Shown here: piece after piece, positions 16,789-56,863 of the stretch
How the letters are laid out: every line of letters begins with the position of its first letter
Numbering within the stretch: position 1 is the first letter of the stretch
Origin: Candidatus Woesearchaeota archaeon
GTDB taxonomy: Archaea > Nanobdellota > Nanobdellia > Woesearchaeales > UBA10216
Direction of reading: 5' to 3'
NCBI GenBank assembly: GCA_016180195.1
Contig: JACPBS010000006.1
Location: 4,681-68,680 of the forward strand
Length of the DNA stretch: 64,000 bases
The notes under the pieces: generated by a model
What the model saw: only the letters and a program-made list of their open reading frames with translations
Database searches by the model: none
What the model was told of the DNA's origin: nothing
Translations under genes and position numbers: made by a program

Positions 16789-17276
16789 TGCCACATGCTC
16801 ACCTCAGCCGGAAACGGGCCCCACATTGACCCGTTGTAAATCCCGAACACCAAGGATTTTGACGAAACAACTGTCCTGCTCCCAGGCAGCAACTTCGGCC
16901 CTTCGTTAAAAACCTGGAAATTATCAATGCTCACGCTCACCCCGTATTGGCGCGGGATTATGTTACTGGAAATATTGGACATGAATCTTGAGCCCATGCT
17001 GACCTGGTTATTGACATAGAATTCACCCAACTGCTGAAGAACCGAATTCTCGGTGTTTGTAATCGTGCCGTTGTCAATAAGAGCCCTAACGTAGTTGCTG
17101 TTGATCTCGCTAACCTTCGTGCTTGAAAGGGAAACCAGGATATCCCCGCTCATGATCTCAGGCAGATCGCCCAGCGGCGTGTACGAATACGAACCAAGCA
17201 CAATAAACAGCCCAACAACGATAATCCCCATTGCCACAAAAGCGTCAAGGGTAAAAAAATAACCTCTCTTTGACAT
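16785..17276 (-). CDS. Type IV pilin-like protein with a class III signal peptide
   Basis: MSKRG|YFFTLDAFVAMGII...: basic residues, Gly cleavage site, acidic residue near +5/+6, hydrophobic helix. Confidence 0.75.
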   Translation of the reverse strand: MSKRGYFFTLDAFVAMGIIVVGLFIVLGSYSYTPLGDLPEIMSGDILVSLSSTKVSEINSNYVRALIDNGTITNTENSVLQQLGEFYVNNQVSMGSRFMSNISSNIIPRQYGVSVSIDNFQVFNEGPKLLPGSRTVVSSKSLVFGIYNGSMWGPFPAEVSMWQ

Positions 17277-17327
17277 ATGCCTGAAAATTGCAGGTTACCT
17301 TTAAAAAGGTTTTTCGCAAAGGGCCTT

Positions 17328-17481
17328 ATTGAAAACCTAGTTGTTAGCTGAAACCGATTCGGTTCACTGAAGTGAACTTCTATTTTCTCTCCCCTTCGGA
17401 ACCGAGGGGAGGAAAAAAGAACCTTGGTTTAAACAAGGCGAATCGGATCATTTACAACAGGATATGCAATAGGTTTTCAAT
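17328..17481. repeat. 154-bp structured element with 12-bp terminal inverted repeats (MITE- or ncRNA-like)
   Basis: ATTGAAAACCTA/TAGGTTTTCAAT; nested CCGATTCG/CGAATCGG stem enclosing three hairpins; core recurs at 35035-35089. Confidence 0.75.
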
Positions 17482-17578
17482 GCCGTCTCGAAGTCCTCCA
17501 AAGACAAAGAACCGGCCAAAGAGGCTAATTCTGGCGCAAATGCATAAAAAGAAATACTCGAACGAATTAATAGGGCTC

Positions 17579-18790
17579 ATGAGCAATCCTTGGGAAAGGG
17601 CAAAAAAGCAGCTTAGGGCAGCGTCTGAAAAGACAGGATTGGACCCCTATGCCGAGAAAAGGCTTTCAGAGCCGGACAGGACAATCGAAGTCAGCCTTCC
17701 AATGCGGATGGATGACGGGTCAGTAAAGGCTTTCAAAGGCTATCGGGTGCAGCACAACAACACGCTCGGACCTTACAAGGGCGGGCTCAGATACCACCTG
17801 ATGGTTTCAATGGATGAGGTCAAAGCCCTTGCTTTCTGGATGACCATTAAGAATGCGGTAATAGGGGTGCCGTTTGGGGGAGGGAAGGGAGGAATAATAG
17901 TTGACCCGAAAACTCTTTCCGGAAAGGAACTTGAAAGGCTTACCCGCCTCTTCACAAGGAGAATGTCTGATGTCATAGGACCCCTGAAGGACGTGCCTGC
18001 CCCTGATGTTAACACAAATTCCCAGGTAATGAAGTGGATTGCGGATGAGTACCGAAAAGCAACAGGCAAAAGCCAGCCTGCAGTCGTAACAGGCAAGCCT
18101 GTCTCATCTGGTGGCTCAGAAGGAAGAGAAGAAGCGACAGGAAAGGGAGGCGCTTACTGCCTCAATTCGCTCCTGAAAAGGATGAGGATCAAAAAGTCAA
18201 CCGTAGCGATCCAGGGATTCGGGAATGTAGGGATAAACCTTGCCAAATCGCTGATCGAAGAGGGATTCATAATCAAGGCAATATCAGACTCGAAAGGAGC
18301 AATATATGCTGAAGAGGGAATTAAGGATATTGAAGGGCTTGAAAAACACAAGATAGAGAAAGGAACGGTCACTGGATTCATGGGTCTCAGATCCATAAGA
18401 ACGCATGAATTGCTTGAGCTGGATGTGGACATACTTGCCCCCTCTGCTTTGGAAAATTCTGTCACAATCGAAAATGCAGCCAGGGTAAAGGCAGAAATAA
18501 TCCTTGAAATGGCAAACGGGCCCCTTACCGAAGACGCTGACAGGATTCTTAAAGACAGGATAGTCATACCTGACGTGCTTGCAAATTCTGGAGGAGTTGC
18601 AGTAAGCTATTTCGAATGGTACCAAAACATGCACAAAACCAAATGGAACAAGCAAAAGGTGTTTGGAAAACTCAAAGAGCTAATGGAAACCGCTGTCAAA
18701 AACACCCTTGAGAGGAAAGACAGGTACAAGACAAGCCTGAGAATCGCAGCTTACATACTGGCGCTTGAAAGGATAGGCCGCAAGATTTAA
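17579..18790 (+). CDS. gdhA: Glu/Leu/Phe/Val dehydrogenase (glutamate dehydrogenase)
   Basis: GPYKGGLRYH, GGGKGG, PAPDV, VVTGKP, QGFGNVG and PDVLANSGGV motifs; start set at MSNPWE. Confidence 0.95.
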   Translation: MSNPWERAKKQLRAASEKTGLDPYAEKRLSEPDRTIEVSLPMRMDDGSVKAFKGYRVQHNNTLGPYKGGLRYHLMVSMDEVKALAFWMTIKNAVIGVPFGGGKGGIIVDPKTLSGKELERLTRLFTRRMSDVIGPLKDVPAPDVNTNSQVMKWIADEYRKATGKSQPAVVTGKPVSSGGSEGREEATGKGGAYCLNSLLKRMRIKKSTVAIQGFGNVGINLAKSLIEEGFIIKAISDSKGAIYAEEGIKDIEGLEKHKIEKGTVTGFMGLRSIRTHELLELDVDILAPSALENSVTIENAARVKAEIILEMANGPLTEDADRILKDRIVIPDVLANSGGVAVSYFEWYQNMHKTKWNKQKVFGKLKELMETAVKNTLERKDRYKTSLRIAAYILALERIGRKI

Positions 18791-21305: not shown

Positions 21306-21545
21306 GTGGAAAAATTTTATTACAGGATAACTCTGGAAAATAAGTTATATACACTTGAAACATGCATAGGTCCAGTGCAGTTGCGTTTTGATAGAGAAGG
21401 ATTGCCTTATTCAGTCATAGCTGCTGGAATGACAAGAGAACAGCTTGGGAAAACGATTCCTGATTGCAGCAGGGAAGCCTGCATGTTTGTTGACCTGCTA
21501 ATGCCCAAACATAGGCAAATTGAACTTTCCTATACTAGAGAATAA
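21306..21545 (+). CDS. Small hypothetical protein
   Basis: 79-aa ORF continuing the plus-strand run. Confidence 0.45.
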   Translation: MEKFYYRITLENKLYTLETCIGPVQLRFDREGLPYSVIAAGMTREQLGKTIPDCSREACMFVDLLMPKHRQIELSYTRE

Positions 21546-26211: not shown

Positions 26212-26684
26212 ACACCGAATTCCGTGAGATATTTTTTTAAGACTTCCATGAACTTAGGCTCTGACATCGGGCAGCCTGGCACGAAATCATCCACCTTAAC
26301 AACATCCTTGACAGAAAGCACCTTCTCAGCCAGCCTGAAGCGATCAACAAGCATCTTAATACATGCCTTCTTTTCTTCGCTGAAATCATTCCTTTGGGCA
26401 GAGGGCATTCCATCAACAGCACAGGAGCCGACAGCAACAAGCCTCTTGCATAATGACCTTATTTTCCTGAGATCAGCCGCATCCTTCTCCGTCGCGATAG
26501 CGCCCTCAATAAAGGCAACGTCCATCTCCTCCATCAAATTTTTGGACTTCAGGATTCTGGCATGCCTGAAATCAAGCAGGCGTTTCCATTCCAAATAATG
26601 CTCATTCATCATCTCAACAAACACGATGGTGCTGTCCTCAGAGCACGAAAAAGAGAACCATCCGACCCTTAACTTTTTCTGCAT
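26205..26684 (-). CDS. [NiFe]-hydrogenase small subunit, truncated to the proximal-cluster domain
   Basis: FSCSEDS, VAVGSCA and VPGCP motifs; only 159 aa. Confidence 0.85.
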   Translation of the reverse strand: MQKKLRVGWFSFSCSEDSTIVFVEMMNEHYLEWKRLLDFRHARILKSKNLMEEMDVAFIEGAIATEKDAADLRKIRSLCKRLVAVGSCAVDGMPSAQRNDFSEEKKACIKMLVDRFRLAEKVLSVKDVVKVDDFVPGCPMSEPKFMEVLKKYLTEFGVC

Positions 26685-26786
26685 GCTGTTTTTCCCAATC
26701 CAGCGCTATATAATTTTTGTGCTTGAACTGGCCCGGATTATTTTGTCATCATGTAGTGGTTATTGGGAATTAAATTTAAATATTAA

Positions 26787-27023
26787 TTGTCGTTCAACAA
26801 CAAAATGACTGCTGATTCACGTGTCGTGGATGCGCTAGACCGGATATCATACAGCCAGCCCTATGCGATAATCGAAAGCCTCGAAGAACTGACAGAAAAA
26901 CAGCTGGAACTCCTGTACGCAGGGCTGAAAGAACCTGAAAACCAGGCAACCTTGGCTCAGCTGATGTATTTCCAGAAATACCTTGACAAATTCATGCCCG
27001 AAGTGTCAAGAACCCCGGGCTAA
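26787..27023 (+). CDS. Small hypothetical protein whose stop codon lies inside the repeat element
   Basis: 78-aa ORF; its last codons read into TGTCAAGAACCCCGGGCTAA. Confidence 0.45.
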   Translation: MSFNNKMTADSRVVDALDRISYSQPYAIIESLEELTEKQLELLYAGLKEPENQATLAQLMYFQKYLDKFMPEVSRTPG

Positions 27024-27205
27024 AGCCCAGGGCGTTTCTTGAGCACACAAATCAAGCTTTGCTTGATTGTGCCCATTTGAGCTATGCTCAAATTGGGTCT
27101 CAGAAATTGCTCGTCCTTACTGCGCACTAAAGTGGCACAAATAAACGCTTGGCGTTTATTGTGCAATAAACCTTTAGGTTTATTTGCAATTTCTGACATT
27201 TCAAA
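27003..27205. repeat. Second copy of the mosaic palindromic element
   Basis: Near-identical to 2228-2481 except for two indels. Confidence 0.9.
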
Positions 27206-27470
27206 AGAGGTGGGGGCTATTGCTGTGGACCTTACTCGGTCTTCAATATAGTTCCTCTAATCTGGGTAGCCAAGGAATACCCTCAGGGCAACCGTGTGGT
27301 TCCAATAGAACACCTGTCAGACGAACTGGAGCTTGAAATAGGCAAGCCAATAGACCCGTATTTAAGGCAATCCCTTGTCACCCACTCAATCGACTACTCT
27401 GGCCTATTGGTAATGCAAACGCTCAAAAGATCTTACGAGGTTTATGTGGAAAAGGACAACATTGCAGCTT

Positions 27471-31467: not shown

Positions 31468-32007
31468 ATGGATTCCCTTGCAATAATCCATCTCCGGGAG
31501 GAATATGCGGTTGACACATGCGTTTACAGGGAATTATATCGAAGAATTCTTTCTGAGGTGGAAACGGTGAAAAAACAGGGAGGCATTGTTCAGTTTCTTG
31601 CCGATTTCGACATTGTCGGCATCAATTCCGAGAATGTGCCGCTTGAGTTCAGAAACGGGGATTTCGAGTTTGTCGGCACATATGGCAGCTACCTTTGCCA
31701 GTTTTTAGTTGCGAAAAAAAGGATTATTGATTCCAGAGTGACTACAACAACAATAGCCGGGATTTCCTATTCAGTTTGCGTTCCAAGTTTCCTGACGCTG
31801 CTTCAGGGAGAGAACCCCTTTCCGGATTTGAGTTATGAGTCCGCATTGATCATGCTTAACTGGCCGGAAAAAGAATTTTTTGCAACCCTGAAAGCCAAGC
31901 TTAAAGGGGAAATCAATGATGGCCTTACTGATTCGTTTTGTGATAAGAGAAGGAAATCAAAACCCCTTGAATTGTTACCCTTACCACATTTGCTGAATAG
32001 ACCTTAA
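31468..32007 (+). CDS. Hypothetical protein
   Basis: 179-aa ORF; no recognisable motif. Confidence 0.55.
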   Translation: MDSLAIIHLREEYAVDTCVYRELYRRILSEVETVKKQGGIVQFLADFDIVGINSENVPLEFRNGDFEFVGTYGSYLCQFLVAKKRIIDSRVTTTTIAGISYSVCVPSFLTLLQGENPFPDLSYESALIMLNWPEKEFFATLKAKLKGEINDGLTDSFCDKRRKSKPLELLPLPHLLNRP

Positions 32008-32043
32008 AAGAGGCAATTTTTTTGAATTCAACAATCCCCAAAA

Positions 32044-32223
32044 ATGAAGATAGGTGACTTTGAATTTAAGATTCCGCAGATAGAATTCGAGATACTGTAC
32101 AAGGAAATCGTCCTTGGAAGCGAGAAGGACCTTTCGGACGCAAGACACTTAAGGGAAACATTCAAAGACAGGCTAAAAAACGAAAATTTTAAGGAGTTTG
32201 AGAAAATAATAAGACCAACATGA
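32044..32223 (+). pseudogene. 59-aa ORF resembling the C-terminal part of an archaeal nucleotidyltransferase-like protein
   Basis: MKIGDFEF...YKEIVLGSEKDLSDARHL; in-frame stop upstream at 32023; ATGA overlap with the next ORF. Confidence 0.45.
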
Positions 32224-32417
32224 AATCAGCGAAAAATATTGATTATATCAGGTTACATGCCGAGAAAATACGGAAAGACAGCAGGCATTTTGCACAGCAA
32301 AAGATGCTGATTGACTCCCAGATACAGGCGTCACGCTCATTCTTTCAGAGAAAATTTTCGGGAAAGGACTTCAATACGGAAGCAAGGAAACACCTTAAAG
32401 GGATTGGATTGCTTTAA
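32220..32417 (+). CDS. Small basic hypothetical protein
   Basis: 65 aa; translational coupling with the upstream ORF. Confidence 0.6.
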   Translation: MKSAKNIDYIRLHAEKIRKDSRHFAQQKMLIDSQIQASRSFFQRKFSGKDFNTEARKHLKGIGLL

Positions 32418-32480
32418 GTCAGGAAAATTCAAAAAGCCATGGAAAAGGCATTAAGTATTGGTTCAGGTGTTTTCAGCTGC

Positions 32481-32537
32481 TTTACAAATAAATTTCGCTT
32501 TGGGTTAAATGCCCCGCCCTTTAGGGCGAAATTTATT
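32481..32537. repeat. Stand-alone copy of the first module of the 2.1-kb array
   Basis: 48 of 51 nt identical to 2125-2175; perfect 12-bp IR AATAAATTTCGC/GCGAAATTTATT. Confidence 0.85.
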
Positions 32538-32690
32538 CAGGCTTCGAATTATCGGTGGAAAGCATACTGCAATAGAGCATCTGACCGAAGGTCTGCCAAA
32601 GCACGCTGTCGGTGAAGCTAAATGCTGTCAAGGAACTCATCAAGGAGGGCTTTATCCTGCAAAAGCAAACTTCCTACGGATTGCAAGTTA

Positions 32691-33323
32691 TTATTTATCA
32701 GATAATTGCTTCTTAAGATTCCTTATGCATTCATTGCAGAACTCATCAGAGCGGAAATCCATTGGGTATGCTTTCGATTCGGGAAGGCTATCGATAGATG
32801 AAGGAGCCATAGGACAATAATACCCATCGGGGTTTTTCAGCACATGATGCGGAAGTCCATTCATGTGCCCGACTTCGTGTATGGCCAGCGCGACTAATCT
32901 TCTCAAAATTTTTTCTGGTTCATCCAGCATGTTTTGTGTTGAGATCATAGCCAAGGATGCAAGATCGTCCACAAAAGCAATGCCCTTGGTTAACGAATCA
33001 TACATTTTCCCATAATGATCAGTCACGACCAAAACATCTCCATTTATAAGCAGATAAGGAGGCAACAACCTGCCATATTCAATCAGATAGATCAAATTTA
33101 AGCAAGGTTGTCCGTCCAGGAACTGCAAGCAGGAATTATTAGGATCCCTGATTTTTTCATTCAATGAGATTGATGAATAACAAGGCCTGAATCTCTCTTC
33201 GATCCTTGAATGAAGCCCTTCAAGAATTATAGAGTCCAATTCCGTATGGAGCGGTGCGATGGATAAAGTTTTTGCCATGAGTGAAAAAGAGGAGGCGAAA
33301 TCGTTTAAAAATTTTGCCTTCAT
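32691..33323 (-). CDS. Archaemetzincin-like zinc metalloprotease
   Basis: HEVGHMNGLPHH followed by CPM...FCNEC. Confidence 0.8.
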   Translation of the reverse strand: MKAKFLNDFASSFSLMAKTLSIAPLHTELDSIILEGLHSRIEERFRPCYSSISLNEKIRDPNNSCLQFLDGQPCLNLIYLIEYGRLLPPYLLINGDVLVVTDHYGKMYDSLTKGIAFVDDLASLAMISTQNMLDEPEKILRRLVALAIHEVGHMNGLPHHVLKNPDGYYCPMAPSSIDSLPESKAYPMDFRSDEFCNECIRNLKKQLSDK

Positions 33324-33344
33324 ACAGTAGTAAAAAAATTAAAC

Positions 33345-33590
33345 GCCGGGACTGGGACTTTCAGTGGTTATTGGTTTTGCCAAAAACCATTTTGAACCCA
33401 GATGCCCTTTCGGGCCAGGCTAACCTGACTTGATTCCAGGCTTACGCTGGGGTGATTGAAATTTCCAAAACCCATCTGCGCAATGCCAGGTTATGCGATC
33501 CCGGCATGTGGATGCCTTCGGCGCAGACAAAAAAACGCTAGTTTTTATTTGTATGCGATCCTGGCGCAAAGAATAAAAGCTCGGCTTTGT
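33345..33590 (-). ncRNA. Candidate structured ncRNA of unknown family (strand inferred from GNRA loops)
   Basis: GC-rich intergenic stretch with several stems; GUAA and GAAA tetraloops on the minus strand; downstream of SRP54. Confidence 0.4.
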
Positions 33591-33616
33591 TTTTATATGT
33601 TTTTATTTATAACTCA

Positions 33617-34963
33617 TCAAGCCTTTGTCCCCATTCCCTGCATCTTCTTCATGAGCTTCTTCATGTCCTTCATGTCCCCGCCCTTGAACATCTTCATGAC
33701 CTTCCTGCTTTGCTTGTACTGCTTCACAAGTTCCCTTATCTCCGACTGCGTCACACCAGACCCCCTGGAAATGCGCTCTATCCTCCTTGAATCCATTACT
33801 TCGGGGTTCTCCAGCTCCTCTTTCGTCATGGAATCCATTGCGAATTTCCATTTTTTCAGCTTTCCTTCCTGCACCTCAATAAGCTCCTTTGGAAGCTTTA
33901 GCTGCCCGAATCCGGGAATAAGCTCCATTACCTTGCTTAAAGGACCCATTTTCCTCATCGCCTGCATCTGCTCATACAAGTCAAGGAGATTGAACTCGCC
34001 CTTCAGGAATTTTTTCCCGAGGTCTGCTGTTTCCTCCTCAGTCATCGCCTCCCGTGTCTTCTCAAGCAGCGCCTGAAGATCGCCCATGCCGAGAAGCCTG
34101 CCTACAAATCCTGAAGGATTGAACTTCTCAAGATCCTCTATCTTTTCACCTACCCCGATGAACTTAACATTTGCTCCTGAAACAGCGCAGGCGGCAAGCG
34201 CACCGCCTCCCTTTGCGGTCCCCTCCAGCTTAGTGATTATAACGCCAGTTATCTTCACAGCTTCGCTGAAAGCCCTTGCCTGCCTTTCAGCTGCCTGCCC
34301 TATATCGCCTGACATTACAAGGATGCTTTCCTCAGGCCTTATAACTGTGCCAAGTTCCTTAAGCTCAATGATCAGGTCGTCTGAAAGAGCATCCCTGCCT
34401 GCCGTATCGACAATTACTACATCATACTTCACGGATTCAAACTCGAATTTCCGGTATATTGACAAGGGATCCTTTGACTTTGGGTCCCCGAAAACGGGCA
34501 CATTTATTTTTTTACCGAGCTGTTCAAGCTGCTCAAAAGCAGCGGGCCTATACACGTCAAGCTGCACCAAAGCAACCTTCAATCCCCTTTTTGAAAAGTA
34601 TGCGGCAAGCTTTCCAGCTGTTGTTGTCTTGCCAGAACCGAAAAGTCCAAGCAGCATAATCCTTGTGGGCTTTGACTTAACTTCAATGGTGCTTTCCTGT
34701 TCTCCAAGAAAACGAACAAGCTCCTCATAAACAATCCTGATGAGCAGTTCCTTCTTGCTGATCCCGGGAAGCTCCTCCTTTAATGCCCTTTCCTTTATCC
34801 TTTTCGAGATATCAAAAACAATCCGGACATTTACGTCTGACTGCAGCAGGGCACGCTGGATGTCCTTCACCAGTTCGTTCACCAGGGTTTCGTCAACAAA
34901 AAGGGCCTTAGCTATCCTGTCTATGCTCCCTTTCAGGGATTCCCCGAGCTTGTCCAGAACCAT
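33617..34963 (-). CDS. ffh: Signal recognition particle protein SRP54
   Basis: GLFGSGKTTT, DTAGR, TKLEGTAKGGG motifs and a Met-rich M domain. Confidence 0.96.
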   Translation of the reverse strand: MVLDKLGESLKGSIDRIAKALFVDETLVNELVKDIQRALLQSDVNVRIVFDISKRIKERALKEELPGISKKELLIRIVYEELVRFLGEQESTIEVKSKPTRIMLLGLFGSGKTTTAGKLAAYFSKRGLKVALVQLDVYRPAAFEQLEQLGKKINVPVFGDPKSKDPLSIYRKFEFESVKYDVVIVDTAGRDALSDDLIIELKELGTVIRPEESILVMSGDIGQAAERQARAFSEAVKITGVIITKLEGTAKGGGALAACAVSGANVKFIGVGEKIEDLEKFNPSGFVGRLLGMGDLQALLEKTREAMTEEETADLGKKFLKGEFNLLDLYEQMQAMRKMGPLSKVMELIPGFGQLKLPKELIEVQEGKLKKWKFAMDSMTKEELENPEVMDSRRIERISRGSGVTQSEIRELVKQYKQSRKVMKMFKGGDMKDMKKLMKKMQGMGTKA

Positions 34964-34995: not shown

Positions 34996-35173
34996 TGTCA
35001 AAAGGAGGTCCCATTGGTCTTCGTGAAGTTCTCACCTTCGGAACCGAGAGGGAAAAAAGAACCTTGGTTAAACAAAGGCGAATCGGGTCTTTTACAAGCA
35101 GAACAGGTAATGGGTTTCAAATACAGCCTAAATGCGAATTTTCTATCTTGTTCGCGACTAGTGGTTCTTGACA
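34996..35173. repeat. 178-bp structured element bounded by TGTCAA/TTGACA
   Basis: Core shared with 17393-17450; the right end (minus strand TGTCAAGAACC) matches the left end of the 2228/27003 modules. Confidence 0.7.
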
Positions 35174-56755: not shown

Positions 56756-56863
56756 CGGGCCCACAGGGATTTGAATTCCAGCTTCTTCAGCTTTTCCAGC
56801 TGATAGTGTCCCTGGACCTGTTGGTTAAGAGCCAACCGCTCTACCAGACTAAGCTATGGGCCC
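56756..56863 (-). tRNA. tRNA-Lys(CTT) with a 34-nt intron at 53/54 (56776-56809)
   Basis: Acceptor GGGCCCA/TGGGCCC-G; anticodon arm GTTGG-CTCTTAA-CCAAC; CAGGG^TTCAAAT-CCCTG. Confidence 0.9.

Follow-up and report, generated by a model that had tools for sequence, protein, structure and literature searches.

What is the strongly folded, non-coding sequence that lies between two divergent genes of this archaeal contig, and how did it come to be there? The window analysed here is a stretch of 64,000 nucleotides (G000:C5:4681-68680) from the genome, G000, of a very small groundwater archaeon of the DPANN group; this genome has 1.23 Mb in 25 contigs and is 97.5% complete. The original prediction, made from the letters alone, described a nested element of 154 bp and offered two readings of it, a non-autonomous mobile element or a repeated structured RNA. 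It also took a second locus in the window for the same core with exchanged ends, and proposed modular assembly. In this study, we conclude that the element is probably a member of a MITE superfamily, presumably moved by a DDE transposase with an 8-bp target duplication, and that its shared core would act on DNA and not as a strand-specific RNA.

Boundaries and structure of the element

The element is 166 bp long (17322-17487) and non-coding. Its ends, GGCCTT at 17322 and GCCGTC at 17487, lie 6 nt beyond the 154-bp stretch on each side; they were set there because the sister copies and their target duplications show so. The termini first proposed, 17328 and 17481, had to be moved outwards accordingly. 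The perfect 12-bp inverted repeat that had been read there is present (17328-17339 / 17470-17481) and is the inner part of the left terminal inverted repeat and its partner. The same left end is carried by the copies at C25:60850 and C25:106935 of G000. The terminal inverted repeats are imperfect and about 23 bp long: in the pairing of GGCCTTATTGAAAACCTAGTTGT with the right end's complement, 12 bp are perfect and further bases pair with gaps. The features of the locus are the following, in window coordinates.

17314-17321, no strand: candidate left target-site duplication, degenerate, TCGCAAAG, by comparison with TCGAAGTC
17322-17344, + strand: left terminal inverted repeat, GGCCTT followed by ATTGAAAACCTA and GTTGT
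17345-17352, + strand: left subterminal spacer, mostly unpaired in the folds
17353-17447, + strand: core, a perfect four-way junction (covariance model R1, folds, covariation)
17354-17361/17439-17446: core helix P1
17362-17377: core hairpin P2
17378-17421: core hairpin P3
17422-17438: core hairpin P4
17448-17454, + strand: right subterminal spacer
17455-17487, + strand: right terminal inverted repeat region, ACAAC, an 11-nt bulge, TAGGTTTTCAAT and GCCGTC
17488-17495, no strand: candidate right target-site duplication, degenerate, TCGAAGTC, by comparison with 17314-17321

The inner helix that had been described, CCGATTCG/CGAATCGG, is P1 at the positions given above, and the GTTGT/ACAAC pair and the three hairpins read as claimed. 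The position between divergent genes was likewise correct: the neighbours are, on the - strand, an ORF of 163 aa that matches no Pfam family and, on the + strand, a glutamate dehydrogenase gene (PF00208, PF02812). The lone ORF of at least 50 aa over the element is an upstream GTG-extension of the glutamate dehydrogenase frame, the ATG of which is at 17579.

The nested, cloverleaf-like multibranch structure is also the minimum-energy fold, and it is far better than that of shuffled sequences on both strands. Folded as RNA, the + strand reaches -62.0 kcal/mol (z -8.36) and the - strand -61.5 kcal/mol (z -8.50), and in either case none of 200 shuffles folded as well; folded as DNA, 17322-17487 reaches -42.2 kcal/mol (z -8.13). 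In the minimum-energy fold, P1 and the three hairpins abut with zero unpaired bases and form a perfect four-way junction. Covariance model R1 scored this core at 84.8 bits (G000:C5:22033-22127, equal to 17353-17447 of the window).

Copies and insertion sites

The genome-wide BLASTN comparison that had been proposed as a check did find further copies. In the 1.23 Mb of G000, whole-genome BLAST and alignment with flanks gave three full copies (100, 95 and 90% identity) and three partial or decayed ones. Besides the copy at 17322-17487, they are as follows.

C25:60856-61007: full copy, 95% identity
C25:106777-106929: full copy (copy C), 90% identity
C25:7515-7592: left-half copy that abuts the 3' end of a gene
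C5:104904-104990: 87-bp internal-deletion copy (copy F), without element positions 44-111
35030-35117 of the window, + strand: decayed 5'-truncated copy, element positions 61-149, 83% identity over 88 nt

The last of these is the second locus of the original prediction, which had seen a match of about 55 nt with different termini. The match spans all of the 88 nt, and the copy, which sits between the start of the SRP54 gene and the end of an ORF of 672 aa, retains a degenerate version of the element's own right terminus. Only the left part is gone. The locus is thus a truncated and decayed copy with the same right end, and not a core with exchanged ends. Half of the copies are fragments, and identity among the copies is 90-95%; the family thus appears to be inactive in G000.

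Several copies are flanked by target duplications of fixed length. The duplication is an exact 8 bp around copy B (ATTAAAAA) and around deletion copy F (AATAACTG), and 7 of 8 bases agree around copy C (CTTTGGTC versus CTTTAGTC). At 17322-17487 it is degenerate: TCGCAAAG and TCGAAGTC have the first 3 nt in common, and the rest agrees with a 1-nt indel. The same was seen at related sites in other genomes. Of the 72 related sites with full flanks, 28 are bordered by an exact direct repeat of 8 nt or more; 18 of these 28 also passed an inverted-repeat test, compared with 0-1 of 72 in the control (20 random re-pairings of the flanks). By their flanks, the 76 related sites sort into end classes, and the length of the duplication depends on the class. 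Members of the GGYGYYATTGAAAA class, to which the element itself belongs, have non-extendable duplications of 8 bp (e.g. TTCAGGCA, CAGAAAAA, CATTGCTT and CAGGCTCA), and those of the GGTGMTTTCAAGTTAAGTG and GCTTTGTGTATTAAG classes have duplications of 9 bp.

Sites with and without an insertion could be compared directly for two relatives. L091, of 136 bp in genome G011, lies between two copies of the 9-bp sequence CGCTAGTGG; G023 and G024 have the same flanks with CGCTAGTGG once and nothing between, and L091 is also absent from G019 and G022. G023, G021 and G014 have the syntenic spacer but lack L050, a relative in G019 that ends like the element itself and is flanked by the duplication CCATCACA. 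The comparison with empty sites thus succeeded for these relatives and failed for the window copy, for which no empty site and no synteny were found in the family; the glutamate dehydrogenase orthologues there are only about 50% identical, and the left neighbour lies beside none of them. Taken together, the copies, the terminal inverted repeats, the 8-bp duplications, the lack of coding capacity and the absence of relatives with the same end type from congeners bear out the reading as a non-autonomous element.

One difference between the copies concerns the central hairpin. There, 11 nt of copy C are the exact reverse complement of those at 17395-17405 of the window copy (TTCGGAACCGA against TCGGTTCCGAA), a change of the kind made by template switching within a hairpin. 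Relatives carry CGGTAAGCG or CGCTTACCG in this hairpin and appeared by eye to be flipped likewise; an automatic search for exact reverse-complement apical loops, among which the segment boundaries vary, returned none.

The contigs of four public DNA runs contain none that joins across the element; positions 17376 and 17400, both within it, are points where contigs break off. The sole contig joint in these runs, from 17370 to 17439, corresponds to the internal-deletion copy at another place in the genome. In genome G003, element copies were observed at the ends of contigs C13, C15, C26 and C44. The ends of C15 and C26 are the two halves of one insertion and share the 8-bp duplication GTCCGCAG, so that such MITEs fragment MAG assemblies.

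The core in related genomes

A DNA search of 41 related genomes gave matches in 8, including G000. All 8 belong to the same family, and none of the 16 genomes of other families had a match. The matches in the relatives span the core and not the ends, and every helix shows compensatory changes. Covariance model R1 found the core in 21 of the 26 genomes of the family and in 5 of 121 genomes sampled across the order (G000, G007 and three of other families); one genome of another family holds about 28 core sites. So patchy an occurrence is what one would expect of mobile DNA.

The pairing of the core is maintained across these sites. For 15 cores, RNAalifold predicted 34 pairs, 26 of them with changes on both sides. 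The larger set comprised 76 sites (71 distinct sequences) and was fitted to the covariance model with both strands of each site included. In this larger alignment 94.2% of the cells were paired, compared with 66.0% in shuffles, double changes occurred in 33 of the 34 pairs, and the covariation score was 0.78, compared with at most 0.14 when the partners were slid; the model fit and the kinship of the copies inflate these numbers, but the signal is still far beyond both controls. The base pairs that flank the junction and the distal CCCC/GGGG of P3 are conserved in sequence, and the remainder covaries. Covariation across genera is stronger than in most MITEs, and the core may be functional, whether at the DNA or at the RNA level.

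Two kinds of rearranged relatives were also observed. In the MITE L018 (G020:C48), a stretch of about 54 nt in the left arm, which takes in part of the left end, P2 and the beginnings of P1 and P3, occurs twice in tandem within the element. Four MITEs with GGCTCTGTTGAAAA ends (L111, L113, L115 and L120, in G012 and G015) carry a lone long pyrimidine/purine hairpin that resembles arm P3 of the core (CTCCCC...GGGGA). These P3-like hairpin MITEs suggest that the arms of the core are themselves sub-modules.

Ends, transposases and modularity

Autonomous insertion sequences share their ends with three sister MITE classes. The 913-bp insertion sequence L031 encodes a PF13610 transposase of 295 aa (E 9e-21), and over about 22-24 nt both ends of a MITE class with 9-bp duplications are the same as its own. 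Its sister L035 is flanked by the 9-bp duplication AGCCAACAA; among the PF13610 loci of the relatives, only these two have ends like those of a MITE class, and a search for loci related to the L031 transposase gave only three close relatives. The 895-bp insertion sequence L271 has GGCTCTGTTGAAAATCT ends and a PF01609 transposase (E 3e-18), and MITE L124 combines the ends of this GGCTCTGTTGAAAATCT type with the core (43.8 bits). In G000 itself, a complete insertion sequence of the PF01609 type, of 1020 bp with 20-nt inverted ends, occupies the very start of a contig (C12:1-1020). Its ends agree in 17/20 and 18/20 bases with the two ends of MITE L018, which has the 9-bp duplication GTTTGGAAT and a core of 88.3 bits. 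A homologous core is therefore flanked by the ends of at least three types of insertion sequence from two transposase families, PF13610 and PF01609, while all five insertion-sequence loci searched for the core were free of it. Conversely, the 18-nt end of the element's own class flanks 31 different inner sequences, most of them strongly folded, in Woesearchaeota and Nanoarchaeota records.

Because the core occurs with several insertion-sequence ends and one end with 31 inner sequences, core and ends are separable modules. The proposal of modular assembly is thus upheld for the family, and not for the copy on which it had been based, which is truncated and has the same right end as the element. 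Each end class carries its own core subtype, and the exchange of ends must therefore be rare relative to copying.

The transposase that fits the element's own ends was sought in the same way. No autonomous insertion sequence with the element's end type was found among 19 PF13610 loci, 28 PF01609 loci and 80 loci that bear the end, and in GTDB genomes the 18-nt end occurred in 81 stretches, none of them with an insertion sequence, from records titled Candidatus Woesearchaeota, Nanoarchaeota or Nanoarchaeia. G000 has no match to PF13610 and two to PF01609. The nearest insertion-sequence end in G000 (on C17) matches the element's end in 14/20 bases, and compared with the ends of PF01609-type insertion sequences in the same genomes the element's ends agree in 11/14 and 14/20 bases. 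Judging from these sequence likenesses, the transposase family is left between the two, the PF01609 type being somewhat more likely than the PF13610 type.

Several candidates were set aside. The GGCTCTGTTGAAAATCT-ended insertion sequence and its MITEs make duplications of 9-11 bp, not 8, and this insertion sequence was rejected as the partner of the element's end type. Four PF13610 genes of 293-297 aa (L034, L129, L038 and L040, in G003, G024 and G019) have no inverted repeats; the sequence upstream of three of the four (L129, L038 and L040) is conserved across genomes, and all four may be domesticated or immobile homologues of the transposase. A candidate pair of ends 990 bp apart proved to be a MinD-like gene matched by chance. 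Searches with the 18-nt end in viral contigs and with its G000 variant in bacteria gave only single chance matches (5 and 18, respectively).

The separability of core and ends raises a further interpretation, in which the four-way junction is a selected, portable DNA module that has recombined with unrelated DDE transposon ends and whose fold promotes mobilisation or resolution. We regard this as unlikely. The core could then, for instance, bring the ends side by side on single-stranded DNA, or it could pass for a Holliday junction with those host resolvases that act on replicative cointegrates. A stronger form, that the core is itself a selected or selfish piece of DNA that acquires new insertion-sequence ends and hitch-hikes on whatever transposase is available, seems to us quite improbable. 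It might, for example, serve host enzymes as a Holliday-junction-like substrate and resolve the cointegrates of replicative DDE transposases. The ends of at least three insertion-sequence types and two Pfam families around a core that no insertion sequence holds are in keeping with this, as is the conservation of the junction-flanking pairs and the distal P3 CCCC/GGGG in a core that otherwise covaries. The subterminal GTTGT...ACAAC also resembles another end class, GGTTGTTGCGAAAA...GACAACC, which would fit ends nested within ends. According to the account of the IS6 family in PMC7986276, its members form cointegrates, lack a resolvase and need host recombination. However, any activity of the core is a proposal drawn from sequence, and the core subtype of each class also fits slow co-divergence from one ancestral MITE. 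Hairpin-templated repair could keep the palindromes without selection, to which the loop flip of copy C points, and the core is dispensable for movement, as the same end type carries 31 other inner sequences.

Constraint on DNA or on RNA

A fold that covaries could be kept for the sake of a transcript. In the best-strand rows of the alignment, 2130 cells of the core were Watson-Crick, with 91 G·T cells and 76 A·C cells besides. G·U is acceptable in an RNA helix and A·C is not, whereas a DNA palindrome treats G·T and A·C alike, because each is the complement of the other. The near-equality of the two therefore speaks for constraint or repair at the level of DNA, as does the loop flip of copy C. 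The core sites also show no bias of orientation to genes: the 61 sites with two called neighbours, counted with a crude ORF caller, were 25 antisense-tandem, 16 sense-tandem, 11 divergent and 9 convergent. From the equality of G·T and A·C and the unbiased orientation, we take the palindromes to act on DNA and not as a strand-specific RNA.

The alternative is that the core is a structured non-coding RNA (such as a small RNA, leader or terminator) with a post-transcriptional role, which the MITE disseminates. Its very stable and covarying fold would agree with this, and in the G000 copies P2 and P4 are each followed, on their own strand, by a T-rich run (T4-T6), so that they look terminator-like in both directions. 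These runs are, however, absent in some lineages, such as the copies in G016. Rfam, searched with the whole window at gathering thresholds and with 17200-17620 by E-value, gave at best 22 bits against a gathering threshold of 80, and ARAGORN called no tRNA in the element. The match to a known Rfam family that would have spoken against a new element was thus not found. An RNA would moreover tolerate G·U only, and not the 76 A·C cells that stand beside the 91 G·T, and the tandem settings (25 antisense versus 16 sense) are unbiased. With both strands folding equally well in addition, the suggestion of a repeated structured RNA did not stand, and we consider an RNA function of this kind very unlikely.

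How the element would have moved

We return to the MITE with a DNA-level core, the reading that we prefer. The element would have entered the space between two divergent promoters, with duplication of 8 bp of its target. As with other MITEs, a DDE transposase that binds both ends would have moved it in trans, and the loci searched hold no candidate for the cognate enzyme. The inner nested palindrome of 95 nt is predicted to fold on either DNA strand into the four-way junction and would be a module shared by a MITE superfamily of Woesearchaeota-type DPANN archaea. By folding back compactly on single-stranded or extruded DNA, it may bring the two ends close to each other, and hairpin-templated repair may contribute to keeping it palindromic.

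A REP/BIME-like palindromic repeat moved on single-stranded hairpins by a Y1/HUH transposase of the RAYT type would share the nested hairpins, the intergenic site and the multiple copies, but it can be dismissed as hardly credible, given that the 8-9 bp target duplications and the GG-starting terminal inverted repeats are marks of DDE transposition, that the ends are common to DDE insertion sequences, that PF01797 is absent from the 97.5%-complete G000 and that Y1 elements are not known to make such duplications.

Other observations in the window and the genome

Several further observations concern repeats and the assembly. At 21318/21319, an additional 111 letters, absent from the window, stand at full depth in contigs from three public runs (two studies); they may represent a further small insertion, or else a repeat that the assembly has collapsed. 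At 26624-27287, 31936-32599 and 33264-33927 the contigs together reach 2 to 9 times the depth of the neighbouring sequence, and many alternative joints lie around 27032-27206; these regions seem to hold other multi-copy or variable sequences.

The same 96-99 nt occur at five contig ends of G000 (the starts of C5, C7 and C17 and the ends of C10 and C21), and an unresolved repeat therefore breaks the assembly there. On C17, this repeat at the contig start lies about 450 bases upstream of a PF01609 match (545-907). Further end sequences are shared among C2, C5, C6, C8, C9, C14 and C22, among C15, C16, C20 and C24, and between C1 and C4. A tRNA gene of 108 nt on the - strand (56756-56863) matches a model of 71 positions from end to end; given this excess of length it probably holds an intron, which fits an archaeon.

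Comparison with known systems

MITEs are usually seen as internally deleted insertion sequences with an irrelevant middle. The element resembles the prokaryotic MITEs derived from DDE insertion sequences in that it is short and non-coding, shows GG at the tips of its inverted repeats, has an 8-bp duplication, and is multi-copy and intergenic, with ends shared with autonomous insertion sequences in relatives. Unlike theirs, its interior is not what a deletion has left of the parent insertion sequence but a conserved, covarying four-way junction that occurs with the ends of several types of insertion sequence. Here the 95-nt middle is the most conserved part, and the junction is kept by compensatory change across genera. 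This raises the question of whether a DNA fold aids the movement of non-autonomous elements or whether palindrome repair alone maintains it.

Small dispersed repeats with strong secondary structure are also found in bacteria (Correia/NEMIS, ERIC/IRU, RUP and BOX), and BOX elements are built of interchangeable modules. To our knowledge, these repeats, which belong to another domain of life, have no sequence relation to the element. It differs from them by a four-way junction without unpaired bases and by the evidence against a strand-specific RNA.

The IS6 family offers a closer comparison. As summarised in PMC7986276, its members have GG tips, related inverted repeats of 15-20 bp with cTGTt and caaa, and direct repeats of 8 bp, and MITEs listed for IS6 in ISfinder are named in PMC6807381 (MITEBth2 and MITEHarch3). 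The element likewise has GG tips and 8-bp duplications, with an approximate motif ATTGAAAA at the matching place, and PF13610 insertion sequences in relatives share their ends with a sister MITE class. However, the PF13610 insertion sequences of the relatives and their MITEs make 9-bp duplications, unlike the element, G000 is without PF13610, and the element's ends are closer to those of PF01609-type insertion sequences.

A Woesearchaea genome, with 105 per Mb, is listed among the archaeal genomes richest in MITEs in a census (PMC11602168). The passages of that census that bear on this genome give a bulk MITE-Tracker count and describe no family, fold or parent insertion sequence; the element's family may be among its unnamed clusters. 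Literature searches on MITEs of DPANN archaea gave nothing on such an element, those on four-way-junction MITEs gave unrelated work only, and those on inverted repeats of Woesearchaeota with insertion sequences gave none. For the annotation of DPANN genomes, such repeats matter in that they break assemblies and, because they covary, can be mistaken for RNA genes.

Compared with these systems, the element is a mobile element of an ordinary kind with an unusual, conserved inner architecture. What is new here is the tie between sister classes and identified insertion sequences, the exact empty sites, the evidence for constraint at the level of DNA and one core common to MITEs with the ends of two transposase families.
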